Assembly: GCA_963775955.1 (NCBI GenBank)
Contig: CAVZKT010000002.1
Location: forward strand, 7,994-71,993
Direction: 5' to 3'
Origin: Candidatus Moraniibacteriota bacterium
Lineage (GTDB): Bacteria; Patescibacteriota; Minisyncoccia; Moranbacterales; UBA2206
Length of the DNA stretch: 64,000 bases
The notes under the pieces were generated by a model. That model did no database searches. It saw only the letters and a program-made list of their open reading frames with translations, and was not told where the DNA came from. How positions within the stretch are numbered: position 1 is the first letter of the stretch; every line of letters starts with the position of its first letter. Below, one piece after another: positions 2,674-51,109 of this stretch. A program made the translations under genes and the position numbers.

Positions 2674-3843
2674 CTATTCAGTCTGGGGTTTTAGGTAGTC
2701 TGTAATTGATCTTAGTGTCATTTTGGTAGTTCCGATAACCAGCTTGTCATTGTAAATTGCGTAATCTACTGACAAATCTTCCGGCGATATTATGTTCATG
2801 TAGCGTATGGCTAAGCCGTTATAATCGCTAGTGGCAAATATTTTAGCCGGCAAAGTATATTCGGTTGCCAGAAAAAGCGGGGAGAGTTTTTCGGCCAAAG
2901 TTTTTTCTTCCAGCGCCATTAAGCTTTTTAATTTAACTGGATCTTTGGAATCAATGGCGAGACCCAGCCTGGTGACGGCGTTGTCGTTATAAATAAACAA
3001 GCTGAATGTATCAGACAGGTTTGCGGCGAGCGCCGGCGAAAAGGTGATTTCTGAAATTATCGCAAAATCTTTGAAAAGAATCGAATTTCCCTCCGCGTCA
3101 ATAGTGGTAAATTCAACCGGAGAGGCAATGTTTTCATTTGCCACATCTTGGGCGTAATTTTGCAAAGTTTCTTTCAGCGTGAGGCTGTCAGTAGCGTCAG
3201 TATCAACAACAAGCTCATTTGGTTTGTCAGTTGAAAATTTGGAAACCGGTTCCGGTGTCGGCTCCGGTTCAGTGACGGGCGGGATCACAACAATTTCCGG
3301 AGTGCTTTGGCGGGTAAGCCAAAAATAGTAGCCTCCTCCCGCGATAATTGCAACAATCAAAACAGCTATAACTCCGGCGAATACTTTGCCGAAATTAACG
3401 TGATGCGGGTGCTGTTTTGTTGGGGAACTTTTTTCAGAATCAAAAATAGGTTTTTCAAAAGTTTGAGCCGGGGATTTATGGTCAGCAGCGGCCGGTTTTT
3501 CCGGCTTGGGTGCGGGGCTAACAAACTGAATGCGAGAGTCGGAAGCATCCGATTTTATGGTTTCTGCGCGGGATTCTGTGTTTTCCGGAGCGCTCTTTTT
3601 TGGGGCGGAAAAGTCCAAAAACGGACTGCCCTTTTGCGCTTCCGTAAGTTTTTCCCGGTTTATGGGCTGGATGCGGGCTGTCTCCTCTTGATCTTCATTT
3701 TTTTTAGCCAGTTCGGGATGTTTAATCGCTTCCAAATCTTTTTTCATGGTATGCACCGGCAGATCTTTAACCGGCAAATCGTGTTCCTGGCTTAAGTTGG
3801 CTTGGCTGGCATCAGTTGTTTGATTGTTTTTGTTTTGAAACAT
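2674..3843 (-). CDS. hypothetical membrane-anchored protein (disordered N-terminus, one TM, folded C-domain)
   Basis: 389-aa ORF with single hydrophobic helix FAGVIAVLIVAIIAGGGYYFWL. No recognised motif. Confidence 0.6.
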   Translation of the reverse strand: MFQNKNNQTTDASQANLSQEHDLPVKDLPVHTMKKDLEAIKHPELAKKNEDQEETARIQPINREKLTEAQKGSPFLDFSAPKKSAPENTESRAETIKSDASDSRIQFVSPAPKPEKPAAADHKSPAQTFEKPIFDSEKSSPTKQHPHHVNFGKVFAGVIAVLIVAIIAGGGYYFWLTRQSTPEIVVIPPVTEPEPTPEPVSKFSTDKPNELVVDTDATDSLTLKETLQNYAQDVANENIASPVEFTTIDAEGNSILFKDFAIISEITFSPALAANLSDTFSLFIYNDNAVTRLGLAIDSKDPVKLKSLMALEEKTLAEKLSPLFLATEYTLPAKIFATSDYNGLAIRYMNIISPEDLSVDYAIYNDKLVIGTTKMTLRSITDYLKPQTE

Positions 3844-13110: not shown

Positions 13111-13133
13111 TCCGCCGCGGCGGATTATTTTTA
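13109..13133 (+). terminator. hairpin AATCCGCCGCGGCGGATT + T-run (xerC-like terminator)
   Basis: Perfect palindrome overlapping the stop codon, followed by ATTTTTAT. Confidence 0.6.
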
Positions 13134-25081: not shown

Positions 25082-26108
25082 ATGAGAAATTTAGTTAAAA
25101 CAATCCAAAATACGGCGTTTCAACAGGGGCTTTGGCAGAAAGGGTCAAGGATTATTTTAGGTGTGTCAGGCGGGCCGGACTCGGTTTGCCTGTTGGATGT
25201 GATGGCAAAAATCGCGCTGAAATATGATTTGGAACTGATTGTTGCGCATGTAAATTACGGGTTGCGCGGGAAAGATTCAGAGAAAGATAAAGAGTTTGTG
25301 AGAGAACTGGCAGAGAAATACGGAATTGGAATTGAAGTTTTGCACCCTCATCCGCCCTTCGGGCACCTTCTCCCTAAAAAGGGAGAAGGGGGTTAGGAAA
25401 ACTCGTTCAGAGAACGAGTTACGTTTGATTCGTTACAGATTTTTTGAAAAAGTTCGCCAGGAAAATAAATTTGATTCCATTGCGGTGGCGCATAACGCCG
25501 ATGACCAGGTGGAAACATTTTTAATGCGCGTTATTCGCGGATCCGGCCTCGCGGGACTTTCGGCGATGAAATACAAAAATAATCCGCCGCGGCGGATCAT
25601 CCGCCCGCTGCTGGGAATTTCGCGAAAGGAGATTCTGAAGTATTTGAATAAAACGAATAGAACTTATCGGACGGATAGGACAAACAAGGAAAATTTATTT
25701 TTGCGGAATAAAATCCGAAACCAGCTGATTCCGTATCTGGAAAAAAATTTCAATCCTCAGATTAAAAAAACAATTTTTAGTTCAGTCGGTTCAATTGCCG
25801 AAGACGCGGATCTTTTGGAAAAAATCGCGGAAGAAGTTTATGGGACGGATAGGACAAATAAGACGGATAAAGCAAGTAGTTTGTCTGTTAAAAAATTGAT
25901 GGCTCTGCATCCGGCGTTGCAAAGAAGAATAATTTTAAAAGCCATTTGCAAAGTAAAAAGGGATCTGAAGGACATCGACGCGGCGCACGTGGAAGAAATT
26001 TTGAAAGCGCTTAAAAGCACTAAGGGCAAACGCCAAAGCGTGGCATTTAAAGGGTTGAAATTGACACGCATTGGTGATAAGGTTATAATAACAACTCATA
26101 GCACATAA
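25082..26108 (+). CDS. tilS: tRNA(Ile)-lysidine synthetase (frame change next to an inserted element, about 25335)
   Basis: PP-loop GVSGGPDSVCL, then ...IRYRFFEKV...VAHNADDQVETFLMRVIRGSG...IIRPLLGISRKEI. Confidence 0.88.
25343..25390 (+). repeat. double-hairpin GC-rich element, copy in tilS
   Basis: CACCCTCATCCGCCCTTCGGGCACCTTCTCCCTAAAAAGGGAGAAGGGGG, with hairpins GCCCTTCGGGC and CCTTCTCCC/GGGAGAAGG. Confidence 0.75.
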
Positions 26109-28019: not shown

Positions 28020-28997
28020 ATGTCTAAAATTAACTACTTAGATATCATAAAAAAGGCCGCCGCGGTTACCTGGAAAAATAAAAATCTCTGGTGGTTTGGT
28101 TTTTTTGCGTCGCTTACCAGCGCCGGAAGTTATTTTAGCTATTCTTCTGGAAACGAAAAAGAATTTGCTGGCAGTGCAATAACCAAAGAAAGGGTTATGG
28201 GCTTTGTATCTGATCATATTGCGCTTGTGATTGGCGCGGGAGTTGTTTTCGCTGCCATTTTTATTGTATTTCTTGCGCTGGGAATCATCGGGCGGGGCGC
28301 GTTGATTAAGGCGATCGGTAAAACGCTTAAAAATGAACCGGTTGATTTCAAATCCGGAATGCGCGAGGGGAAAAAATATTTTTGGAAAATTTTGAGCATT
28401 GGATTTTTGAGCGCGATGTTTATTTTTCTAGCCGTCGTAATTTTGGCTATCCCGATTGTTTTTCTATTTTTAAACAAGGCTTATGTTTCAGGCGTTTTAC
28501 TGGCGCTTCTAGCCATCGCCATCCTGATCATGTTTATAATTCTTAGCGTTTTCGTTCGAATTTACGGTTATATTTATGTGACACTGGGGGAGTTGAAAAT
28601 CTGGACGTCCATTGAAAACGCTTATACGCTTCTTCGTAAAAACTTGGGCGTGAGCATTGTCATGGGACTTATTTTTGTACTCCTTGGCATAATTCTGGGC
28701 TTGTCTCTCATTATGCTTCTGGCTCCCATTGTGGCTGTGCTTTTTGTTTTAGGCTCATTTTTTTATTTAATCCTGAAGGGCGTCGGAATTGCCATAGCCA
28801 TCGGGCTGGGCGCTATTACTATTCTTGCGATTACACTTTTTGTCCGGTCTGTTTATGAAACATTCGCGCAGACTATTTGGATTTTATTCTTTTACGAAAT
28901 CGCCAAGCCGAAAGTTGAGGAGACCGTAACTGAAGAAGCCGAGGAAATAAAAGCTGCTCCCGCTCCTGATCCGGTGAAAACAAGTGAGATTTTGTAA
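28020..28997 (+). CDS. hypothetical polytopic membrane protein
   Basis: 325 aa, about 6 TM helices, acidic tail. Confidence 0.55.
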   Translation: MSKINYLDIIKKAAAVTWKNKNLWWFGFFASLTSAGSYFSYSSGNEKEFAGSAITKERVMGFVSDHIALVIGAGVVFAAIFIVFLALGIIGRGALIKAIGKTLKNEPVDFKSGMREGKKYFWKILSIGFLSAMFIFLAVVILAIPIVFLFLNKAYVSGVLLALLAIAILIMFIILSVFVRIYGYIYVTLGELKIWTSIENAYTLLRKNLGVSIVMGLIFVLLGIILGLSLIMLLAPIVAVLFVLGSFFYLILKGVGIAIAIGLGAITILAITLFVRSVYETFAQTIWILFFYEIAKPKVEETVTEEAEEIKAAPAPDPVKTSEIL

Positions 28998-29067
28998 TAA
29001 AACGGGCGTGCTCAGTTTCCGCCAAAGGCGGACCCGCCTATGGCGGGGGTTAGAAAGTATAATGCAC

Positions 29068-29140
29068 GGGCAATTAGCTCAGTGGTTAGAGTGCTTCGTT
29101 GACATCGAAGAAGTCACTGGTTCGATTCCAGTATTGCCCA
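29068..29140 (+). tRNA. tRNA-Val(GAC)
   Basis: GGGCAAT-TA-GCTC...CTTCG-TTGACAT-CGAAG...ACTGG-TTCGATT-CCAGT-ATTGCCC-A. Confidence 0.9.
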
Positions 29141-32318: not shown

Positions 32319-33852
32319 ATGATCAAAAAAATTCCAACTCAAGTCATTGAAGTTTTACAAAAACTGGAAGAATCAGGCTTCGAGGCTTTTATCGTGGGCG
32401 GATGCGTGCGGGATTTGCTCACATTGTGGTGAGCCTGTGAACCAAAAGACTGGGATGTAGCGACTAATGCCAAGCCGGAAGAAGTGCAAAAAATATTCCC
32501 GGACAGTTTTTATGAAAATGAATTTGGAACGGTCGGAGTGAAAGTAAAGCCGTTTATTAAAAATGGAAATCCGAATCGTGAGCATGACGTGATAGAAGTA
32601 ACCACCTATCGCATTGAATCGAAATATTCCGACAAGCGCCGGCCGGATAAAGTTGAATTTGCAAAAACATTAGAGGAAGATTTATCAAGAAGGGATTTTA
32701 CCATCAACGCGATCGCATTAAAACTCGTAACTCATAACGCACAACTCGACACCCGAAGAGGAAAAAATAGCTACGAGCTACGAGCTATGGGTTACGAGAT
32801 CATTGATCCATATGATGGTCAGAAAGATATTAAGAAAAAAATAATCCGCGCAGTGGGTGACCCGCATGAAAGATTTGATGAAGATGCTTGCGGATGATGC
32901 GAGCGGTGCGGTTTCACGCGGAGCTGGGATATAAAATTGAAAAAAATACTTTTGAAGCCATTAAAAAAATATAGCCGGGGATTTAAAACACATTGCTCTT
33001 GAAAGAATAAAAGACGAACTGGCCAAAATTATATTATCCGACAATCCATGCTGAAGGCATTGATATGCTGCATAAAACTAAATCTTCTGGAATATATTAT
33101 TCCGGAATTGGAAAAGGGCGTGGGCGTGAAACAAAACCGCCATCATATCTATACGATATACAAACACAGCATTTTATCTTTAAAACATTGTCCTTCGCAA
33201 AAAATTGGAAGTGCGCTTGGCTGCGCTTCTGCATGACATTGCTAAGCCGCAAACCAAAAGAGGCGAAGGCGAATATGCGACTTTCTATAACCACGATCAT
33301 GTGGGTGCGCGGGTGGCGGCCAAAATTCTTGAGCGTCTGCGTTTTTCACGTGAAACAATTGAAAAGGTGAAACTTCTCGTGGATAATCATATGTTTTATT
33401 ACAATCCGGAAGAAGTGGGAGCCAGTTCCGTCAGAAAATTAATTCAAAAAGTCGGCTTGGAAAATATGAAAGATTTGATTGATGTGCGCATTGCCGATCG
33501 TTTGGGTTCGGGCGTGCCGAAGGCCAAGCCGTATAAATTGCGCCACTTGGAATATATGATTGAAAAAGTTTCCCACGATGCCATTTCCGTAAAGATGCTA
33601 AAAATCAACGGCAATGATCTGATGAAAGAATTAAATTTAAAACCCGGTCCCAAAATCGGCGCGATTCTGGATGTTTTGCTCTCGGAAGTTATTGAAGATG
33701 CTTCCAAAAATAATCGCGAGCATCTTTTAACGCGCGCTAAAGAATTGGATAAGGAGGATTTGAAAAAACTCCGCCAGATGGCGAAGGTAAAGATTGAAGA
33801 GAAAAAAGAAGAGGAAGACAAGGAAATTAAGAGAAAACATTGGGTGAAGTAG
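32319..33852 (+). CDS. cca: CCA-adding enzyme / poly(A) polymerase family with HD domain (5-6 frame changes)
   Basis: Pieces: MIKKIPTQVIEVLQKLEESGFEAFIVGGCVRDLL / PKDWDVATNAKPEEVQKIF...RDFTINAIAL...IIDPYDGQKDIKKKIIRAVGDPHERFDEDA / LRMMRAVRF.. / ...LAALLHDIAKP...YNHDHVGA. Confidence 0.85.
32724..32798 (+). repeat. 75-nt heptad-word hairpin inserted in frame in cca
   Basis: CTCGTAACTCATAACGCACAACTCGAC...AGCTACGAGCTACGAGCTATGGGTTACGAG encodes VTHNAQLDTRRGKNSYELRAMGY between the conserved RDFTINA and IIDP motifs. Confidence 0.8.
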
Positions 33853-33943
33853 GACCATTAGCTCAGTTGATTACCCGCCTCGGCTCGTGGAAGACACTTT
33901 GCGAGGCAGGGAGCACTGCATTTTCACCCCGCACCAAATTTAT

Positions 33944-34129
33944 GGATGCGTAGCTCAACCGGTTAGAGCGCTGCATTTTCATCCCGTTAGATATATGGAC
34001 GATTAGCTCAGTTGGTTAGAGCGTTGCATTCACATTGCAAAAGTCACTGGTTCGAGTCCAGTATCGTCCACAGAAAATCTAACGGGACAAGCATTGCAGG
34101 GGTCACAAGTTCAAGTCTTGTGCCATCCA
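33944..34129 (+). other. middle interrupted tRNA-like gene (same UUC anticodon arm) containing tRNA-Val(CAC)
   Basis: 5' part 33944-33981, 3' part 34094-34129. Bounding repeat CCCGTTAGAT (33983-33992) / ATCTAACGGG (34077-34086). Acceptor pairs 5/7. Confidence 0.5.
33997..34070 (+). tRNA. tRNA-Val(CAC)
   Basis: GGACGAT-TA-GCTC-AGTTGGTTA-GAGC-G-TTGCA-TTCACAT-TGCAA-AAGTC-ACTGG-TTCGAGT-CCAGT-ATCGTCC-A. Confidence 0.9.
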
Positions 34130-34230
34130 CATAAAATTGGTGCGGGGCAGGTTGCAGGGGTCAGTGGTCCGAGTCCGCTAGTGACCACAAATACTAAAAA
34201 CCAAATACAAAAAACTAAAAACTAACCAAA

Positions 34231-34846
34231 ATGGCTTCGCAAGTTTCCCACATAATTTACGCCCGCAAATATTTCGAAAAAAATCCGGCTTTGCCTAATT
34301 TTGAAGATGAATTTATGCTGGGCTGTGTTTTTCCGGACATCCGCCGGATTGACGAAAGTATAAAAAGAAAAGACACGCATCGCTGTTTTTCGCCGCTGGA
34401 TTTGAATTTTTCAGGACTTTCTCCGTTCCAGGCCGGCTGGAAATTTCATTTGTATTGCGATATGAAGCGGGAGGAGATTTTAAATAAATATAAATTTTAT
34501 GAAATTCCCGGAACTGCTGATTTTTGGCACCAGTCAGCCAAACAACTGGAAGATGAAATTATTTATGAAGAGTATAATAATTGGGAAAAAGTCGTGCATT
34601 ATTTCAATAATGTTCCAAAGATAGAAATAGGCATAGGATGTTACACATGAAACTTTCCAGCTGTGGTATGCGATAATCGCCAAATATATTGAGAAAAAAC
34701 CGGACAACAAATCAGCGCATATTTTTTTATCAAAACAACTGTCATGGGCGGAAAAAGCCGACGATATAGTCAAATCAGTTGACAATTTGCGCAAAAATGA
34801 GAGAGTTATAGGGATACTCAGGAAGGTGAAGGATGAAATATTATAG
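34231..34846 (+). CDS. hypothetical protein (one frameshift near 34645)
   Basis: ORF 34231-34650 continues as HETFQLWYAIIAKYIEKKPDNKSAHIFLSKQLSWAEKADDIVKSVDNLRKNERVIGILRKVKDEIL in another frame. Confidence 0.5.
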
Positions 34847-34927
34847 GCCTTGGGGTGTGGTGGAACCCGCGCAGCAGAGCGAGGCGTGGTGCGGGGCAAG
34901 CTGGCAGATTTACCTCGTGCAAATGGC

Positions 34928-35010
34928 GGGCATGTGGCGAAATTGGTATACACGCATGCTTCAGGTGCATGTGGGAGCAATCCTTGAGAGTTCGAGTCTC
35001 TCCATGCCCA
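34928..35010 (+). tRNA. tRNA-Leu(CAG)
   Basis: GGGCATG-TG-GCG...CATGC-TTCAGGT-GCATG, long variable arm, GAGAG-TTCGAGT-CTCTC-CATGCCC-A. Confidence 0.85.
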
Positions 35011-35146
35011 CTTTATTTTTCGGAGCGTGGTATAGTGGTATTACCTGCAGCACCAGAGCGAGGCGCTCGGTGCGAGGCAGGCGCCCGTTAAATACCGGAG
35101 CATAGTATACCGGTAGTACGCGCCCCCTGCCCCGTTAAATATTTTT

Positions 35147-35217
35147 CGGGATATAGTATAGTGGTAGTACGCGCGATTCGGGTTCGTGAAGTCCCAGTTC
35201 GATTCCGGGTATCCCGA
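35147..35217 (+). tRNA. tRNA-Pro(CGG)
   Basis: CGGGATA-TA-GTAT-AGTGGTA-GTAC-G-CGCGA-TTCGGGT-TCGTG-AAGT-CCCAG-TTCGATT-CCGGG-TATCCCG-A (one A:C in the T-stem). Confidence 0.8.
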
Positions 35218-35449
35218 CATCGAAAAATTTAACGGGGTGAAGGTGGGTGTAGACCGGGTTCGATTCCCGGCATCCCGACCGAAAATTTAACAGGGTGAAG
35301 GTTCGTGAAAACCGGGCTCGCCCCGCGCCATTTCTCGGGATAATTGTGGTTTTATTAGGCATTAAGGCGAAGCCGCTTCGCTTTAGTTCTGATGAATATC
35401 ACAGATTATGTTTGGAAATGGTGCGGGGTGAAATTCCCGGCATCCCGAC

Positions 35450-35743
35450 ATGAAAATAATTATAAAAAAAATTAAAGAAAATCCGACAAGTCTGCTGCGG
35501 ATGGCCGGCTATATTTTTCAGCGCAACGAGGGCGAAGAAATGAGTTTTATCCGTCCTTTGGCGCGCGCGGGCTTTCCGCGTTTCCATATGTATGCTAGTG
35601 TGGCTGGAACTGATTTAGCAATAAACATCCATCTGGATCAGAAAAAAGAAACCTACGGAAATTCTAATCGCCATCATGGAGAATATGGAGATGAAGGCGC
35701 ATTAAAGGCGGAGATTGAGAGAATAAAAAGTATTTTGCAATAA
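35450..35743 (+). CDS. hypothetical protein
   Basis: 97-aa ORF between tRNA clusters. Confidence 0.5.
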   Translation: MKIIIKKIKENPTSLLRMAGYIFQRNEGEEMSFIRPLARAGFPRFHMYASVAGTDLAINIHLDQKKETYGNSNRHHGEYGDEGALKAEIERIKSILQ

Positions 35744-35748
35744 ATTAT

Positions 35749-35831
35749 GCCCGGGTGGTGAAACGGCAGACACGCTAGGTTTAGGACCTAGTGAGAGAAA
35801 TCTCGTGAAGGTTCAACTCCTTTCCCGGGCA
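35749..35831 (+). tRNA. tRNA-Leu(TAG)
   Basis: GCCCGGG-TG-GTG...CTAGG-TTTAGGA-CCTAG, long variable arm, GAAGG-TTCAACT-CCTTT-CCCGGGC-A. Confidence 0.88.
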
Positions 35832-35834
35832 CAT

Positions 35835-36776
35835 ATGAAAAAAATATCAGTTACCAAAATTAACGCAGGCAATCGCCTTGACAAATTCCTCGCCAGGGAA
35901 TTTTTTTCGCTTGGATTAACGCGGGGAGAAATAATACGAAATATAAAGTCGGGGAATATATTAGTTAATAAAAACAAAGTTAAGCCAAGCTATCAGCTTC
36001 GTCTTAATGACGAAATAAGATTCAAGATACAAGATACAAAAAGCGAATTAGTCAAAAATCAAAACCTGAAAATAAAAATAATTTATCAGGACAAAAACAT
36101 TATTGTTATAGACAAACCGGCCGGTACTTCTGTCCATCCTGCGAAAGCTGACGAGAAAAATACTTTAGTAAATTTTTTAGTTTACAAATTTCCAGAAATA
36201 AAAAATGTGCATGATAACACCAAGGACTCTTATTTGCGTCCAGGGATTGTGCATAGATTAGACAAGGATACTTCCGGTGTGATGGTTGTGGCGAGAAATA
36301 TAAAAGCTTTTCAAGAACTGAAGAATTTGTTTAAAGAACATAAGGTTGAAAAAAAATATCTGGCGCTGGTTTACGGAAAATTAAAAGATAAAAAAGGCGT
36401 GATTGAAAAGCCGATTGCGCGCGCGGCGACTTATAAAAAACAGGTGATTGCCGGACGGAAAACCAAAACCAAAATCCGCGAAGCCGTGACGAGATATAAA
36501 GTTATCAAAGAATATCAAAACTATTCATTGGTTGAGGCTATGCCCAAAACCGGAAGAATGCACCAAATTCGGATCCATCTTTTTTCCATCGGCCATCCGA
36601 TTGTCGGGGATAAAATTTATAAAACAAAGAGGAGAGACATTCCACAGGGAGTTGCTCGCCAGCTTTTACACGCTAAAAGCCTGAGTTTTAAGCTGCTAGG
36701 CAAACAATATAATTTTCAAGCAGATCTGCCGGAAGACTTTTCAAAACTTCTGATGGGGTTGACTAAAGGAGCATAA
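35835..36776 (+). CDS. rluD: RluA-family 23S rRNA pseudouridine synthase (RluD-like)
   Basis: S4-like N-terminus, HRLDKDTSGVMVVA, GRMHQIRIHL. ATG at 35835 avoids overlap with the tRNA. Confidence 0.85.
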   Translation: MKKISVTKINAGNRLDKFLAREFFSLGLTRGEIIRNIKSGNILVNKNKVKPSYQLRLNDEIRFKIQDTKSELVKNQNLKIKIIYQDKNIIVIDKPAGTSVHPAKADEKNTLVNFLVYKFPEIKNVHDNTKDSYLRPGIVHRLDKDTSGVMVVARNIKAFQELKNLFKEHKVEKKYLALVYGKLKDKKGVIEKPIARAATYKKQVIAGRKTKTKIREAVTRYKVIKEYQNYSLVEAMPKTGRMHQIRIHLFSIGHPIVGDKIYKTKRRDIPQGVARQLLHAKSLSFKLLGKQYNFQADLPEDFSKLLMGLTKGA

Positions 36777-36897
36777 AAAGGTAGGATAATAAGGCTAAAA
36801 TTTAATCAAATTTGCACATACTCAATGGTGGGTTTTTTATTGTCAAGCGAGTGATGATAACTATTTTATTTAAACAAACTTCGAGTATAATAAAGTC

Positions 36898-37338
36898 ATG
36901 CAGAAAAAAATTATCGAATTTAACCAGGCGCAGAGATCCAAAAAGTTTCCGGATTTTCAAGCCGGAGATGTAGTCAAGGTTCACCGGAAAATCAAGGAAG
37001 GAGACAAGGAAAGAATCCAAATTTTTCAGGGCATCATAATTTCCATTAAGGGCAAACAGAGTTCCTCACCGATGATCACAGTGCGCAAAGTTTCCGACGG
37101 CATTGGAGTGGAATTGATTCTGCCGATTTTTTCACCGGGCATAGAAAAAATAGAAGTGGTGAAAAGAGCCAATGTCAGAAGGTCCAAGCTCTTTTATCTG
37201 CGGGGGCTTACCGCCAAAAAAAGCCGGATGAAATACAAAGAACTGGCCGAATTCATACCAGAGGAAGAAAAAGCCAAAGAGCCGGTGGCCGAAAATATTT
37301 CTGCTGAAGAAGCAAAGGAAACTAGCGGAGAAAAATAA
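36898..37338 (+). CDS. rplS: 50S ribosomal protein L19 with acidic C-terminal extension
   Basis: FPDFQAGDVVKVHRKIKEGDKERIQIFQGIIISIKG...VRKVSDGIGVE. Confidence 0.9.
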   Translation: MQKKIIEFNQAQRSKKFPDFQAGDVVKVHRKIKEGDKERIQIFQGIIISIKGKQSSSPMITVRKVSDGIGVELILPIFSPGIEKIEVVKRANVRRSKLFYLRGLTAKKSRMKYKELAEFIPEEEKAKEPVAENISAEEAKETSGEK

Positions 37339-37362
37339 AAAATGTTTTTGCGGATGTCTTTT

Positions 37363-37445
37363 GGGGATATGGCGGAATCGGTATACGCGATAGGTTGAGG
37401 ACCTATGCTCGTAAGAGCGTGAGGGTTCAAGTCCCTCTATCCCCA
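37363..37445 (+). tRNA. tRNA-Leu(GAG)
   Basis: GGGGATA-TG-GCGG...ATAGG-TTGAGGA-CCTAT, long variable arm, GAGGG-TTCAAGT-CCCTC-TATCCCC-A. Confidence 0.9.
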
Positions 37446-37450
37446 CACAG

Positions 37451-37500
37451 GCGCGCTTAGCTCAGTTGGCTAGAGTCCGCCACGGCGGATTTACACCGAG
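37451..37500 (+). pseudogene. partial copy of tRNA-Val(TAC) (acceptor, D-arm, modified anticodon arm)
   Basis: GCGCGCTTAGCTCAGTTGGCTAGAG is identical to 37745-37769, followed by TCCGCCACGGCGGA-TTTACAC-CGAG. Confidence 0.7.
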
Positions 37501-37511
37501 AGGGTAAAATT

Positions 37512-37754
37512 ATGTTTTTTGTATACATTATCGAAAATAATGACGGAAAGCTGTATATTGGTCAAACCTATAATTTAGAAAAAAGAATTCTAGATCATAA
37601 CGAATTAGGAATAGGATATACTTCTAAATTTAGACCATGGAAATTAATATATTCAGAAAGTTTTTATTCCAGGAAAGATGCTATGAAAAGAGAAAAATAT
37701 TTAAAAACCGGAGCTGGCAGGGACTGGATTAAAAATAATATCAGGCGCGCTTAG
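37512..37754 (+). CDS. GIY-YIG nuclease-domain protein (80 aa)
   Basis: MFFVYIIENNDGKLYIGQTYNLEKRILDHN...KREKYLK. The stop codon TAG lies inside the 5' end of the downstream tRNA-Val(TAC). Confidence 0.8.
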   Translation: MFFVYIIENNDGKLYIGQTYNLEKRILDHNELGIGYTSKFRPWKLIYSESFYSRKDAMKREKYLKTGAGRDWIKNNIRRA

Positions 37755-37821
37755 CTCAGTTGGCTAGAGCGCCTCGTTTACACCGAGGATGTCGGGGGTT
37801 CAAGTCCCTCAGCGCGCACCA
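37745..37821 (+). tRNA. tRNA-Val(TAC), the only tRNA here with an encoded CCA
   Basis: GCGCGCT-TA-GCTC-AGTTGGCTA-GAGC-G-CCTCG-TTTACAC-CGAGG-ATGTC-GGGGG-TTCAAGT-CCCTC-AGCGCGC-A-CCA. Confidence 0.9.
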
Positions 37822-37933
37822 TTTCGGAAAAGTGCGGATGGAGTCCGCCACGGCGGATTTACAACAGAGAGTTTGGGGGCTGAAAGTTCGCCGTGGCGAA
37901 TTCGAGTCCTATAGGATCCACCCTTAAAAATAA

Positions 37934-38181
37934 CCTGGATAGCTCAGTTCCGCCAAGGGCGGACAGGGTTCGAGCACACGACCCCGCACTAAAATTTTGC
38001 CGAGTTAGCTCAGTGGTAGAGCACACGACTGAAAATCGTGGTGTCCCCAGTTCGATCCTGGGACTCGGCACATAAATGGCAAAATTTAGTACGGGGCAAG
38101 CTGAAAATTTTACCCCGCACCAATCCGCCGCGGATTTGGTGTCGGGGCCTTGCGTGCCCAGTTCGACTCTGGGATCTGGCA
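37934..38181 (+). other. interrupted tRNA-Phe-like gene enclosing intact tRNA-Phe(GAA)
   Basis: CCTGGATAGCTCAGTT[CCGCCAAGGGCGG]...GAGCACACGAC | CCCGCACTAAAATTTT | tRNA-Phe | AAAATTTAGTACGGGG CAAG CTGAAAA [TTTTACCCCGCACCAATCCGCCGCGGATTTGGTGTCGGGG] CCTTGCGTG-CCCAG-TTCGACT-CTGGG-ATCTGGC-A. Confidence 0.5.
37999..38070 (+). tRNA. tRNA-Phe(GAA)
   Basis: GCCGAGT-TA-GCTC-AGTGGTA-GAGC-A-CACGA-CTGAAAA-TCGTG-GTGTC-CCCAG-TTCGATC-CTGGG-ACTCGGC-A. Confidence 0.9.
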
Positions 38182-38231
38182 CAAAATATTGCTTTGCATG
38201 AAGCGGGTCTGCCCGCCAAGGCGAAGCGCAG

Positions 38232-38303
38232 GCGGGTATCGTATAGCGGCTATTATATTACCTTGCCAAGGTAGAGATACGGGTTCGACTCCCGTTACCC
38301 GCT
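38232..38303 (+). tRNA. tRNA-Gly(GCC)
   Basis: GCGGGTA...TTACC-TTGCCAA-GGTAG...ACGGG-TTCGACT-CCCGT-TACCCGC-T. Preceded by a duplicated GCGGGT + GC hairpin. Confidence 0.8.
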
Positions 38304-38405
38304 CAGCGAAAAATGAGGCTAATTGAAGCCTTGTTTTTTATTACCCATGAGGGAAATCGAACTGTGTGGTATAATAAAAATGTAATAAATTAAAAAAATA
38401 ATGTT

Positions 38406-38786
38406 ATGAAGATAGAACAGGGACCCCAAAAACCTCTCAATAAAGATGAAGCGCATGAGTTAGCTAATATGATGAAAGCTAAATGGCCGCTAGTATCAAG
38501 AACTGCGGAAGACTACAATCGAGCGCTTATTTTAGTTGAGGAAATAAAACAAGAAGCTGAAAAGGAATCTAATGTGGAAAAAGTTTTTAATGATGTGGCT
38601 CGTCGGGCAGTAACAAATTATCATGACTTCCTTGATTTTGTTCTTGGATTATGCGGAAGTGGAGATGATTTGGAAAAAAGATCTATGTCACTTCATGATC
38701 TTGAAGATGCGGCAAAAAAATTAAAAGATTTGAAATTCGAAGCAAAAAAAGTTGCAGAACGAGAAAATAATGGAGTTGCCCAGTAG
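38406..38786 (+). CDS. hypothetical protein
   Basis: 126-aa ORF. Hairpin terminator at about 38936-38961. Confidence 0.5.
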   Translation: MKIEQGPQKPLNKDEAHELANMMKAKWPLVSRTAEDYNRALILVEEIKQEAEKESNVEKVFNDVARRAVTNYHDFLDFVLGLCGSGDDLEKRSMSLHDLEDAAKKLKDLKFEAKKVAERENNGVAQ

Positions 38787-39068
38787 TTTATTTTTAAACA
38801 TTGCAAAGCATTAGAAGGTTTGGGTAAATACGATTTAAAATGAAGTTTGAACTTCTTCGGGAAGGCAAGGCTTAAACAAAGTAGTTCTCTCTGAATCCAG
38901 TTCTAATCGTGTAGCTTAAAGAGCTCAAAATTCATAAAAACGGCTTAAATGGGCCGTTTTTATATTGCAGGGATTGACATTACTAATTTTAATTGCTAAC
39001 TTTGTATATCAAGCTGTACCTGAAAAATCTAGAGCTATTAAGCTCAATAAATAGAAGGAGGAATTAAG

Positions 39069-39503
39069 ATGAACGACAATGATCGTGCCGAGGCATTGCG
39101 GGAAATGAGACTTTTTAAAGTTGGCAGCAGCTTTCTCTTTGCAGTTCAAATACCTGATGACTCAGTCGGGTGTAGCGGCTCTCGTTGCTCAAATTGCAAT
39201 AATACGGTGGCTTACTGCGAGCAAAGATGCACATCGTGCGGTTTTCCGTTTATTGGGCCGTCAGGCTTTCCTCAATTCTCTAAGTGGAAGACTCTTGATT
39301 CAAGCAGAAAAAGAATACTAGTCGAAGATGTTTACGCAAGCGGTGTTTCCAGGGGTCGTCTTGGATATTCAAATGTTGAGTTTGTCCCGCTAACCGTCAG
39401 GGAGTTAAGTAGAGTTGAAAGACTGGAAGGGTGTGACGCCAGACACTTTATCTCGGCTCACTTAATATCGCCAAAGGTAATCAGGGTAACTCTTTTTGAG
39501 TGA
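39069..39503 (+). CDS. hypothetical Cys-rich (zinc-ribbon-like) protein
   Basis: GGAGGA RBS. CSGSRCSNCNNTVAYCEQRCTSCGFPF. Confidence 0.5.
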   Translation: MNDNDRAEALREMRLFKVGSSFLFAVQIPDDSVGCSGSRCSNCNNTVAYCEQRCTSCGFPFIGPSGFPQFSKWKTLDSSRKRILVEDVYASGVSRGRLGYSNVEFVPLTVRELSRVERLEGCDARHFISAHLISPKVIRVTLFE

Positions 39504-39537
39504 GTAAAAAACAAAACGTCAGCTCTAATAAGCTGTG

Positions 39538-39562
39538 CCAGGTACGATAACCCTGGTTTTTT
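39538..39562 (+). terminator. rho-independent terminator
   Basis: CCAGGTACGATAACCCTGG + TTTTTT. Confidence 0.6.
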
Positions 39563-39841
39563 ATTTAAAACAAACACTTTCTCTCATAAACCCAGTTCAA
39601 ACCCCAGAAGTATCCGCCTCGGGCGGAACTACGGGGTAGGCTGTATGAACCCCGGTAGCAAATCCGCGGCGGATTGCTACAGGGTAAACTTCCCAGCTCA
39701 AAAATAGTCCAAAACACCCTTTTTCAAGCCGAAAATCCTACCCGGGGATTTTTTGGTTTTTATGGCTTAAATCAGCCTAAAACAAAAAGCGGGAGAAATC
39801 TGTATGGCTTAAATAAGCCAAAAAGTCGAATCGGCCTTTTA

Positions 39842-39918
39842 CCCCGTTAGAAGTTATATATTTTGCTTATTAAAGCCTTAAATGGCAATTTTTCGCTTGA
39901 AAAAGACTTCTAACGGGG
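39842..39918 (+). repeat. CCCCGTTAGA-type inverted-repeat element
   Basis: CCCCGTTAGAAGT (39842-39854) / ACTTCTAACGGGG (39906-39918). Confidence 0.8.
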
Positions 39919-39947
39919 TTGACAGCTGGATGAGGATCTGCTATACT
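39919..39947 (+). promoter_or_regulatory. sigma70-type promoter TTGACA-N17-TATACT (extended -10 TGC) abutting the repeat arm
   Basis: GGGGTTGACAGCTGGATGAGGATCTGCTATACTGG, 70 nt upstream of the 40016 gene. Confidence 0.6.
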
Positions 39948-40015
39948 GGTTGGTCAGCCTGGAAAGGCTATTTTATTTGGAGTCTGGGCCTGACATTAAC
40001 AATTAAAAGCAATAC

Positions 40016-40585
40016 ATGCGTATCATTAGTAAGTTGATGGTCGCGCTGGCGCTTTTGGCGGTAATTATGCCTCAAGTAGCCCTGGCGGCCGAAAACGAGG
40101 ACACTAATGAAACACAAACAAAATTTAAAATACAAGAGAATAATCAGGCTGTTGATGGCCTTGTCTATGACAACATACTGATTCAAGCGCCTTACAATTA
40201 TCCCGGATACGAGCCGGTTAAGACTCCCGATGAGCTTAAGCGGGAAGCGATGGCCGAGAAGTATAAAAATTTAATTGCTTCTGCCAACTTTCCACAAGGA
40301 AAATTTGTGCTTAACGCTTCAGCCTATACGGCGGCGGCGGATGAGTGCGGAAAAAGCAACGGCATTACGGCCAGCGGCGTCAAAGTTATGGAAAACAGAA
40401 CTTTGGCCTGCCCGCCCCAATATCCTTTTGGAACCAAAATCCAAATTGATGGCATGGGAACCTATGTTTGCGAAGACCGCGGGGGAGCGATCAAGGGCAA
40501 TCATGTGGACATCTATATGGAAACCAAGTCCCAAGCTTTCGCTTTCGGACGAAGAAATCTGGTGGCGGAAATAGTCCTGAACTAA
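40016..40585 (+). CDS. secreted 3D-domain protein (MltA/RlpA-like fold)
   Basis: Signal peptide. ASAYTAAADECGKSNGITASG...YPFGTKIQIDGMGTYVCEDRGGAIKGNHVDIYM. Confidence 0.75.
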   Translation: MRIISKLMVALALLAVIMPQVALAAENEDTNETQTKFKIQENNQAVDGLVYDNILIQAPYNYPGYEPVKTPDELKREAMAEKYKNLIASANFPQGKFVLNASAYTAAADECGKSNGITASGVKVMENRTLACPPQYPFGTKIQIDGMGTYVCEDRGGAIKGNHVDIYMETKSQAFAFGRRNLVAEIVLN

Positions 40586-40768
40586 AAATTCAAAATAAAA
40601 TATGCAAAAACATCCCGAGCAATTGGGATGTTTTTGTTTACTCCCGCATCAACTTTTTATTTTATTAAATTTCGATTATTAACCAATTAATTTCTATGTA
40701 AAAAGTTGGTGCGGGGTTTGACCTAAGGAGTTGTTTTTGGTAAACTAAGCCTTGTAATATAGTATTTT

Positions 40769-40841
40769 GGTCGCGTGGCGAAGCAGCTAACGCGGCGGTC
40801 TGCAAAACCGCTATTCGTGGGTGCAACTCCCACCGCGACCT
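40769..40841 (+). tRNA. tRNA-Cys(GCA)
   Basis: GGTCGCG...GCGGT-CTGCAAA-ACCGC...GTGGG-TGCAACT-CCCAC-CGCGACC-T. Confidence 0.8.
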
Positions 40842-40855
40842 CAATAAAATTAAAC

Positions 40856-40939
40856 GCCCGGGTGGTGGAACCGGTAGACACAAGGGACTTAAAATCCCTC
40901 GGTAGCAATACCGTGCGAGTTCGAGTCTCGCCCCGGGCA
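40856..40939 (+). tRNA. tRNA-Leu(TAA)
   Basis: GCCCGGG-TG-GTGG...AGGGA-CTTAAAA-TCCCT, long variable arm, GCGAG-TTCGAGT-CTCGC-CCCGGGC-A. Confidence 0.9.
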
Positions 40940-40943
40940 CAAA

Positions 40944-40967
40944 AAAACAGGCAGTAAGCCTGTTTTT
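40944..40967. terminator. bidirectional hairpin terminator
   Basis: AAAAAAACAGGCAGTAAGCCTGTTTTT lies between the convergent tRNA genes and the speH-like gene. Confidence 0.65.
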
Positions 40968-40979
40968 AACTTTATAAAT

Positions 40980-41372
40980 CTAGTATCTGAAATTTATTGA
41001 AATTTTATAACTATTCGCTCCGAAAAATTTTTTGGCGAATTCAGCTGTTTTATAGGGCGGGTATTCCTTGCAACTGAAAATATCCAGATAGACGGCATTG
41101 CTTTGGTTGGCGAAATGGCCGGAAATGAGAGAGGTTTCAATAAGTTGTGTCATGGAAAAACCGGTAACCCGCGGATCGTCGCCAAAATCAATAACCACAG
41201 TTTTTCCAAACCGGCGCATCTTTATCAAGTCGCATAGTTCTTTCACGAACTGTTTCACCTTTTTGGCGCTGCGGATCGTTTTTGGATTGCAATCGTAAAG
41301 ATCAACGCAAGTGCTCATGCCCCACGGATTTTTCTTTTTGTATTTTTTGATTATTTTTTGGTCTTTAGCCAT
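40980..41372 (-). CDS. S-adenosylmethionine decarboxylase-related protein (SpeH-like)
   Basis: 130 aa, LIETSLISGHF resembles the self-processing ES site region. Confidence 0.55.
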   Translation of the reverse strand: MAKDQKIIKKYKKKNPWGMSTCVDLYDCNPKTIRSAKKVKQFVKELCDLIKMRRFGKTVVIDFGDDPRVTGFSMTQLIETSLISGHFANQSNAVYLDIFSCKEYPPYKTAEFAKKFFGANSYKISINFRY

Positions 41373-41461
41373 TTCATTTCCCCTCCCGCCTCTAGCGGAA
41401 ATTTGCCAATAGTTTTAGTTAGTGGATTTAATTATAAGATAAACTGAAATTTATGCAATAG

Positions 41462-42055
41462 TTATTTTTGTTCTTCTCTGAGCTTTTTCAAAACTTTCGG
41501 AATTCGTTTGAAATCTTTAATCAAAACTTCGCGCATACTGCCGTTATATAGCGCGGCGGCAGGATGATAAAGCGTATAAAAAACCTGTTTTCCCAGGCCT
41601 TCCATTTCCCGGCGCAGGGCTTTGCCGTGGACTTGGGAAATTTTTTGTCTGGGCAAAAAGCGCTCCATGCTGTGACGCCCCAGAGTCACTATTAATCCGG
41701 GCTGGATTATTTTTATTTGCTCTAAAAGCCACGGCCAGCAGGCTTCCGCCTCCTCCGGGAGCGGATCGCGGTTTGCCGGCGGGCGGCACTTAACGACATT
41801 GGCAATATAAACCTGGTCGCGCTTGAGTTTTATAGAGGCAAGCATTTCATCCAGAAATTTTCCCGCCGCGCCCACAAACGGACGGCCCAGCTCGTCCTCT
41901 TTCTGTCCCGGCCCCTCGCCGATAAACATAATTTCAGCGTCTGCCGATCCTTCGCCGGGAACAACCTGCTTGCAAGTCGCGCGCAAGACACAGTGGCTGC
42001 AGGCCAGCATTTTTTTATTCAGTTGGCCTAGTTGTTCTTGTTTGTTTAAGGTCAT
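41462..42055 (-). CDS. udg: uracil-DNA glycosylase, family 4
   Basis: CSHCVL...C, GEGPGQKEDELGRPFVGAAGKFL, ...HPAAAL. Confidence 0.85.
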   Translation of the reverse strand: MTLNKQEQLGQLNKKMLACSHCVLRATCKQVVPGEGSADAEIMFIGEGPGQKEDELGRPFVGAAGKFLDEMLASIKLKRDQVYIANVVKCRPPANRDPLPEEAEACWPWLLEQIKIIQPGLIVTLGRHSMERFLPRQKISQVHGKALRREMEGLGKQVFYTLYHPAAALYNGSMREVLIKDFKRIPKVLKKLREEQK

Positions 42056-50989: not shown

Positions 50990-51109
50990 GATTAGTATTT
51001 AGTATGGAGTATTAAGAATAATTTAAAATAAAAATAAAAATTCACCCTGTTGAGTAATCCGCCTGAGGCGGATTACTCAACAGGGTAAAGCTAGAAAGGC
51101 TGGTGAAAT

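Follow-up and report, generated by a model that had tools for sequence, protein, structure and literature searches.

A minimal GIY-YIG nuclease gene between broken and intact copies of tRNA-Val(TAC): a putative selfish tRNA-gene cassette

The closest described analogue of the element considered here is SegB, a free-standing GIY-YIG homing endonuclease of phages T4 and T6, which cuts tRNA-containing DNA and yields tandem tRNA-Tyr/segB units through microhomology shared by the tRNA's 5' end with segB's 3' end (PMC13096335). The element lies in a 64,000-nucleotide stretch of a Candidatus Moraniibacteriota genome (GenBank assembly GCA_963775955.1, contig CAVZKT010000002.1; this whole stretch is called the window below), where an 80-codon GIY-YIG open reading frame (ORF) runs into an intact tRNA-Val(TAC) gene and is flanked by broken tRNA-Val pieces carrying GC-rich palindromes. 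The same three-part design, consisting of a nuclease gene, an intact tRNA and a palindrome-bearing broken tRNA, recurs beside tRNA genes in many phyla, and from sequence comparison we regard it as moderately probable that the ORF is one copy of a cross-phylum lineage of ~80-aa Slx1/UPF0213-type GIY-YIG genes living as selfish tRNA-gene cassettes. As with SegB, a GIY-YIG gene lies among tRNA genes, its 3' end joins the 5' end of a tRNA, and tandem units occur. SegB is, however, much longer, I-TevI-like and phage-encoded, with a C-terminus that can lose 28 residues (PMC13096335), while the protein encoded by the cassette belongs to the Slx1/UPF0213 clade, comprises only a bare catalytic domain of 80 aa and occurs in cellular genomes. 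Neither split resident tRNA halves nor a companion palindrome is reported in the searched portions of the SegB text (PMC13096335).

Other known systems share part of this design. The best sequence and fold matches of the protein, with the same catalytic residues, are the UPF0213 proteins (BH0048, EF2693, B. subtilis YazA and E. coli YhbQ) and the nuclease domain of eukaryotic Slx1. These proteins, however, come without associated broken tRNAs or palindromes; B. subtilis yazA is single and lies between trmN6 and rsmI rather than beside a tRNA gene, and Slx1 has a RING domain and needs Slx4. In a B. subtilis record labelled as a plasmid (NZ_AP028965.1; locus L162, 753-1782), yazA was seen to overlap the end of the tRNA1(Val) adenine37-N6 methyltransferase gene trmNF and to precede rsmI, a second, independent link of this nuclease clade with tRNA(Val) biology. 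Integrative elements that target tRNA genes resemble the cassette in being inserted in a tRNA gene, in leaving a partial duplicate and in keeping one intact, functional tRNA. Such elements rely on integrases of the tyrosine or serine type, leave the tRNA 3' end duplicated and are kilobases long, whereas the cassette measures ~0.3 kb, has no integrase, duplicates the 5' part or both halves, and has its duplicate disabled by palindromes. The clustering of short, scattered GC palindromes around a nuclease gene also recalls the REP/RAYT systems and the mobile GC-rich palindromic clusters of fungal mitochondria. RAYTs are HUH (Y1) enzymes, however, and REPs are not known to be embedded in tRNA pseudogenes; the palindrome-flanked protein here is a GIY-YIG enzyme and not an HUH (Y1) transposase. 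Finally, the group I introns with homing endonuclease genes in tRNA genes of Patescibacteria share with the cassette the organisms, the target class and the possession of an endonuclease ORF (PMC13011429), but no intron RNA is detectable at 33000-42000 of the window and the ORF-adjacent tRNA is uninterrupted. The enzymes named in the 2026 survey of these introns are of the HNH, LAGLIDADG and PD-(D/E)XK types, and the term GIY-YIG is absent from it (PMC13011429). As no GIY-YIG gene with broken tRNA copies and a companion palindrome was found described in the full-text literature, with most subscription journals outside its coverage, the three-part architecture is apparently undescribed so far.

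The tRNA-Val(TAC) locus and its nuclease gene

The locus comprises the following features, given by position in the window and strand.

37451-37500, forward: psi1, broken 5' part of tRNA-Val(TAC), with nt 1-25 (37451-37475), a palindrome in place of nt 26-31, and nt 32-42 (37490-37500)
37476-37489, no strand: palindrome copy 1, TCCGCC-AC-GGCGGA (TCCGCCACGGCGGA), in psi1
37498-37504, forward: Shine-Dalgarno-like GAGAGGG ahead of the nuclease ATG
37512-37754, forward: GIY-YIG nuclease gene, 80 aa, UPF0213/Slx1-like, its last 10 nt being tRNA nt 1-10
37745-37821, forward: intact tRNA-Val(TAC), acceptor GCGCGC, encoded CCA (ARAGORN; Rfam tRNA, 69 bits)
37836-37922, forward: psi2, broken 3' part of an older tRNA-Val(TAC), with D-arm remnant, palindromes, loops and acceptor 3' strand
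37844-37857, no strand: palindrome copy 2, in psi2, followed by the anticodon loop TTTACAAC
37887-37900, no strand: second palindrome of psi2, TTCGCC-GT-GGCGAA, replacing the 5' T-stem strand

The 5' ends of psi1 and the intact gene lie in a 28-nt exact direct repeat (37448-37475 and 37742-37769), consisting of CAG followed by nt 1-25 of tRNA-Val(TAC), for which the chance expectation in 64 kb is ~3e-8 by our arithmetic. Beyond the palindrome of psi1, the string TTTACACCGAG (37490-37500) is identical to 37777-37787 of the intact tRNA, corresponding to the anticodon loop and the 3' strand of the anticodon stem, and the nuclease ATG starts eleven bases after it. The ORF ends with ...AGG CGC GCT TAG, in which the stop codon is U8-A9-G10 of the intact tRNA. 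Downstream of that tRNA, the module GGATGGAG-TCCGCCACGGCGGA-TTTACA at 37836-37863 is 93% identical to 37468-37495, and past its second palindrome psi2 continues into a full tRNA 3' end (37901-37922) with T-loop and acceptor 3' strand, ...CCTATAGGATCCACC. The first-pass annotation of this DNA had described the duplicated first 25 nt, the left copy with its anticodon loop retained and a palindrome in place of the 5' stem, the 80-aa GIY-YIG ORF whose last codons and stop are supplied by the 5' end of the tRNA, and a third, degenerate module downstream, and all of these were borne out. The full 3' end and second palindrome of psi2, the broken tRNA-Phe copies described below and the recurrence of the palindrome in the window go beyond that annotation. 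Its remark that no other tRNA of the window has an encoded CCA also proved accurate (1 of 15 tRNAs), but as a mark of a foreign cassette the encoded CCA is not general, being present in 27 of 74 ORF-adjacent tRNAs among related loci against 16 of 43 others. The intact tRNA-Val(TAC) is the functional copy and is carried with the ORF.

An Rfam scan of 33000-42000 at E<=1 returned tRNAs only, with intron families, including group I, not found. A group I intron or split tRNA was therefore rejected, also on the ground that removal of the palindromes does not restore a tRNA, because the palindromes replace nucleotides. The inserted segment (37501-37835) contains no integrase or recombinase gene and holds only the 80-aa ORF and the tRNA, and the predicted RNA fold of the leader (37448-37530) is not unusually stable (z = -0.9).

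The encoded protein matched the Pfam GIY-YIG family (PF01541) with an E value of 2.4e-18 and 66.6 bits (cut-off 22.6), and the group I intron endonuclease model TIGR01453 reached 24.7 bits, below its cut-off of 56.05, over residues 3-31 only. With a profile built from 37 relatives, the UPF0213 structures of BH0048 and EF2693 ranked first (1zg2, 1.7e-12; 1ywl, 1.4e-11), followed by SLX1 at 1e-7, with I-TevI (1mk0) appearing only at 1e-3. An AlphaFold (AF2) model of the protein (pLDDT 91.8) has the alpha/beta GIY-YIG fold, and its top Foldseek matches were UPF0213 1zg2 and Slx1 6seh (TM 0.70, rmsd 2.3 Å). Residues Y5, Y15, G17, R25, H29, N30 and E61, which include the catalytic Tyr, Tyr, Arg and Glu, are invariant across the 37 relatives, and no C-terminal DNA-binding region follows the catalytic domain, which fills the ORF to its end at residue 80. 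The nuclease is thus of the minimal UPF0213/Slx1 type, a bare domain, and not of the I-TevI type. The check proposed by the first-pass annotation, GIY-YIG in general versus the UPF0213-like family, accordingly placed the protein in the UPF0213/Slx1-type group by both profile and fold; its description of the domain as a classic homing-endonuclease module stands as regards GIY-YIG, but not as regards an I-TevI-type homing endonuclease.

The window ORF is 85% identical to its relative in locus L001, with a dS of ~1 (synonymous sites saturated) and a dN/dS of 0.08. Such a ratio at saturated synonymous sites argues that the nuclease gene is functional, and by this measure the ORF is under purifying selection. 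A search with the branch profile put the family at 28,715 cluster representatives with a threshold of E<=1e-3, a count falling to 7,821 with E<=1e-10. Many database members (P0093, P0094, P0098, P0104 and P0137, for example) are 100-215 aa long, and in them the domain occurs twice or does not begin until residue 20-60; these over-long entries are probably gene calls through a broken tRNA leader, or fused tandem copies. No further copy of the nuclease ORF was found elsewhere in the 64-kb window. A role as a defence system was rejected, since no PADLOC match was credible (the only one, to PDC-S14, was marginal with E=0.0086). A phage or plasmid origin was likewise set aside, matches there being distant (~40% identity) and neither of the two inspected cases adjoining a tRNA.

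Recurrence across genomes and the companion palindrome

A scan for relatives, using one genome per species, gave 171 related stretches, of which the best 80 loci (L001-L080, from 80 genomes) span Candidate Phyla Radiation (CPR)/Patescibacteria, Bacteroidota, Verrucomicrobiota, Planctomycetota, Acidobacteriota, Ignavibacteria, Desulfobacterota and others. Flavobacterium fluviale and Pedobacter sp. SYP-B3415 are cultured carriers. An intact tRNA on the same strand was located near 72 of 93 ORF copies, <=60 nt downstream (41) or <=100 nt upstream (34), and in 18 copies the stop codon coincides with tRNA nt 8-10, the register seen in the window. The other 21 copies include 11 inner members of tRNA-anchored tandem arrays and several at contig ends; near-identical tandem ORF units are present three times in L016 and twice in L006 and L024. 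Where the ORF precedes the tRNA, a copy of the same tRNA (nt 1-23 and 32-43) stands just before the ATG in 39 of 40 loci, with a GC palindrome in place of nt 24-31 in 37 of them; where the tRNA precedes the ORF, the 3' part of the tRNA follows the stop codon in 25 of 31, with a palindrome in 24. Broken copies flank the intact tRNA on both sides in 10/38 and 14/30 of the loci. Fifteen different anticodons are found next to the ORFs (Lys, Asn, Val, Met, Gln, Pro, Phe and others). In 58 of 83 cases the ORF's closest relative from another genome adjoins the same anticodon, against ~11 expected by chance, an excess to which shared taxonomy contributes, and nuclease lineages thus stay with one tRNA species. 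The first-pass annotation had held that membership of a ubiquitous stand-alone family unlinked to tRNA genes, together with absence of the partial tRNA copy from relatives, would speak against it: the family is indeed ubiquitous and stand-alone, but this branch is tightly linked to tRNAs and the partial copy is present in relatives.

This recurrence bears on two alternative explanations. As the window comes from a metagenome-type CPR genome, and tRNA arrays are rich in repeats, a chance repeat or assembly artefact was considered. Dozens of independent assemblies, drawn from various studies and phyla, nevertheless show the same architecture, and the ORF is conserved with its low dN/dS, so that the comparative data already contradict this explanation and leave it a negligible probability. 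It was also conceivable that the protein is an enzyme serving the host in the metabolism of tRNAs or tRNA genes, its gene being located in tRNA operons so as to be co-expressed, with the broken copies arising as by-products of recombination. The strong purifying selection and long retention of the ORF would agree with this, as would the position of its housekeeping relative yazA in B. subtilis, overlapping the gene for the tRNA1(Val) m6A37 methyltransferase, and a reported fusion in which a TrmH-like tRNA methyltransferase is joined to this GIY-YIG clade (PMC1564403). However, the gene is missing from close syntenic relatives, occurs in many copies per locus and in tandem arrays, is attached to at least 15 different tRNA species and always has a wrecked tRNA copy alongside, and we therefore consider a host function quite unlikely.

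The palindromes that interrupt the broken tRNA copies beside ORFs have the form T-CCGCC-N0-4-GGCGG-A and end 10-43 nt before the ATG or start 0-46 nt after the stop codon. CCGCC-N-GGCGG palindromes number 77 in the 36 kb flanking ORFs against 27 in the other 372 kb of the same loci, that is, 2.1 versus 0.07 per kb, a 30-fold difference. Among 76 that were catalogued, the stem is preceded by T in 72 and followed by A in 73, and 39 are perfect through the centre, where 25% (centres of 2-3 nt) or 6% (4-nt centres) would be expected, the cases not being phylogenetically independent. This perfect central symmetry points to a feature of the DNA rather than to an RNA hairpin. Some lineages have alternative stems in which both arms have changed (TCCGGC/GCCGGA, CCGTC/GACGG and TCCCG/CGGGA), and it is therefore the pairing that is kept. 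Fold-back repair of a break was rejected as the origin of the palindromes, whose arms are constant and do not derive from local sequence. They are also distinct from ordinary terminators, in that those in broken tRNAs have no T-runs, can be found several to a fragment and show perfect symmetry through the centre.

Given the hairpin-bearing broken tRNA that abuts the ORF, an RNA-level toxin-antidote system was also weighed, in which the nuclease would cut its cognate tRNA, the transcript of the broken tRNA would act as a decoy or inhibitor in the manner of a type III RNA antitoxin, and the linked intact tRNA gene would compensate. The close spacing of palindrome and ORF resembles the repeat-then-toxin order of type III systems, the compensatory stem variants would suit a structured RNA, and the clade is linked to tRNA enzymes. 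Selection on an RNA hairpin would not, however, yield palindromes that are perfect through the centre, and the nested old and new tRNA genes described below would be left unexplained. We know of no GIY-YIG enzyme that acts as a tRNA nuclease, and consider this system improbable.

About 18 palindromes of this kind are present in the window, where a pattern scan expects 0.1 by chance. Those away from the nuclease gene are mostly intergenic.

7736, 13112, 22332, 25584, 39614, 43556, 47874 and 51059 (start positions), no strand: dispersed palindromes

The palindromes at 13112 and 47874 adjoin tRNA-Met and tRNA-Ser, that at 25584 lies inside a 260-codon ORF, where it would encode PPRR, and that at 51059 is the core of a longer palindrome. 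The intergenic stretch 39590-39690 holds two palindromes (TCCGCCTCGGGCGGA and AATCCGCGGCGGATT) and a T-arm-like CCCAGTTCAAACCCCAG, and may be another tRNA wreck.

Many of these copies being distant from the ORF, it is possible, although we think it rather unlikely, that the palindromes are the primary mobile agent, comparable to REPs or miniature inverted-repeat transposable elements (MITEs), and are spread in trans by the nuclease as RAYT transposases spread REPs. The tRNA genes would then be preferred landing sites at which only hits on spare copies survive, so that palindromes build up in the broken copies, and the nuclease gene would reside among its palindromes. The T-CCGCC/GGCGG-A form shared by the 76 ORF-side palindromes, with its frequent perfect symmetry, indicates a DNA-level element, several palindromes may occupy one broken tRNA (three in L012; nested in L082), and broken tRNAs without an ORF still bear them. 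On the other hand, the centres vary between copies, which are therefore not simple copies of one master, and the palindromes replace tRNA nucleotides instead of being cleanly inserted. Some CCGCC hairpins outside broken tRNAs (L092, L144) resemble ordinary terminators, and neither the fixed ORF/tRNA register nor the nesting of old and new tRNA genes is accounted for by mobile palindromes.

Empty sites, nested tRNA genes and a possible mode of spread

Empty sites were compared with the gene for ribosomal protein L19, which stands ahead of tRNA-Leu(GAG) in the window, as anchor of the loci. The order L19/tRNA-Leu(GAG)/tRNA-Val(TAC)/Phe/Gly is kept in compact form, without ORF or palindrome, in L081, L083, L086, L094 and others, so that tRNA-Val(TAC) loci both with and without the ORF were found, as the first-pass annotation had proposed to look for. 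Presence and absence of the ORF at this conserved site were seen between related lineages, not within one species. In L001, one of the closest relatives, the upstream piece psi1 has the acceptor GGATCCT, and the intact gene has GCGCGCT, identical to the intact tRNA of the window. The downstream pieces end with ...CCTATAGGATTCAC in L001 and ...CCTATAGGATCCACC in the window, the ends AGGATCC and AGGATTC occurring among these two loci, and the GGATCC acceptor type of the window's psi2 matches psi1 of L001 and both halves found in L082. L082 has an intact GCGCGC-type tRNA-Val that divides a complete GGATCC-type tRNA-Val close to the latter's anticodon loop; there is no ORF, and each half contains a long palindrome, nested palindromes being present. 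Since the flanking pieces of the closest relatives carry a different acceptor from the intact gene, psi1 and psi2 are the two halves of an older, resident tRNA-Val, no longer functional, which the ORF and the new tRNA-Val(TAC) have split as one insert. Over its first 28 nt, psi1 of the window has been homogenised with the intact gene, and the identical tract ends exactly at the palindrome. Locus L003 has an intact GCGCGC-type gene, followed by the ORF and by a copy of the GGACGG type that is full-length but disabled by a single palindrome, an arrangement that suggests serial replacement. The earlier view of the locus as a homing or duplication scar outside an intron or intein context is supported, at the level of sequence, by the ORF-less syntenic relatives, the older tRNA-Val halves in the flanks and the lack of a group I intron.

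We favour a lineage of selfish cassettes because the ORFs adjoin many tRNAs, together with broken copies and palindromes, and because of the empty sites, the nested acceptor types and the tandem units. As a possible mechanism, the nuclease would make a break in or beside a tRNA gene, and repair by recombination through conserved tRNA sequence would copy the cassette, as for SegB in the tRNA cluster of T4 and T6. The insertion would be tolerated as the cell keeps one intact tRNA, while the displaced pieces would fill with palindromes that break up the repeated homology. Since the fold is that of the structure-specific Slx1 and a DNA-binding domain is absent, the palindrome, extruded as a cruciform or hairpin, is probably the binding or cutting target of the nuclease itself. 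If the ORF and tRNA are co-transcribed, the ORF would lose its stop codon when RNase P cleaves at tRNA nt 1, so that tRNA maturation and translation of the nuclease would be mutually exclusive for each transcript.

Several observations weigh against selfish spread by homing. No visible difference separates the intact tRNA beside the ORF from the tRNA-Val genes of empty sites (L006 with ORFs resembles L081 without), and the logic of an immune donor allele, expected of homing, is therefore not evident. The insertion is shared by descent between the window and L001, at a dS of ~1 with a dN/dS of 0.08, and a gene retained so long under constraint is more readily seen as useful or addictive than as a decaying parasite. 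The acceptor stems of the broken copy and the intact tRNA are the same in most loci, so that local duplication fits as well as insertion of a foreign tRNA. Simple decay would leave unexplained why the same palindrome stem is present from CPR to Bacteroidota and Verrucomicrobiota. Furthermore, palindrome-riddled broken tRNAs without an ORF are found at the tRNA-Phe and tRNA-Val(GAC) genes of the window and in L082 and L100.

A bolder explanation, which we put forward as a speculative one and judge doubtful, is a natural "cleave-and-rescue" gene drive, acting on essential tRNA genes, in which a bare Slx1-like nuclease, guided by the short conserved palindrome as a structure in the DNA, would destroy resident copies of the tRNA gene, once or repeatedly, while the cassette holds the only working copy, and the cell therefore could not lose it. 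If true, this would explain together the long purifying selection, the nested old and new tRNAs, serial replacements such as that in L003 and the palindrome-riddled wrecks, and would make the palindrome a programmable handle for an 80-aa nuclease. Free-standing nuclease cassettes are already known, and there is a real chance that the palindrome-and-rescue logic is new.

Returning to the favoured lineage of selfish cassettes, small genes annotated as "GIY-YIG nuclease family protein" exist by the thousand, and the present comparisons suggest that a large branch of them constitutes a tRNA-gene-specific selfish element of fixed three-part design. If true, this would account for numerous tRNA fragments and GC palindromes that lack an explanation in genomes of CPR, Bacteroidota, Verrucomicrobiota and other groups, provide a route by which single-copy essential tRNA genes get replaced and a cellular counterpart of phage SegB, and make available for study a nuclease of very small size that has a simple DNA handle.

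Broken tRNAs without a nuclease gene

The ORF-less broken tRNAs of the window lie at the following positions.

29004-29047, forward: broken tRNA 5' fragment GGGCGTGCTCAGTT with two abutting palindromes (TCCGCCAAAGGCGGA and CCCGCCTATGGCGGG), no ORF
37935-37989, forward: broken 5' part of tRNA-Phe without an ORF, its D-loop holding the palindrome TCCGCC-AAG-GGCGGA (37949-37963)
37999-38071: intact tRNA-Phe, nested between the broken 5' and 3' tRNA-Phe copies
38101-38183, forward: broken 3' part of tRNA-Phe, with anticodon loop CTGAAAAT, palindrome AATCCGC-C-GCGGATT (38122-38136) and T-arm/acceptor copy

The fragment at 29004-29047 sits 20 nt upstream of the intact tRNA-Val(GAC) at 29068. Both broken tRNA-Phe copies, each with its palindrome, have the string CCCCGCAC in common, and the upstream piece is conserved in L001. 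In L100, which is without a nuclease ORF, the intact genes for tRNA-Leu(GAG) and tRNA-Val(TAC) each have a broken 3' copy downstream (3116-3262 and 3350-3470), one of these copies with the palindrome TCCCGCCAAAGGCGGGA in its T-loop. In L082, the anticodon loop of tRNA-Phe is interrupted by ~330 nt (~2140-2450), and ARAGORN makes no call there; this interruption looks like the group I introns of Patescibacteria tRNA genes (PMC13011429).

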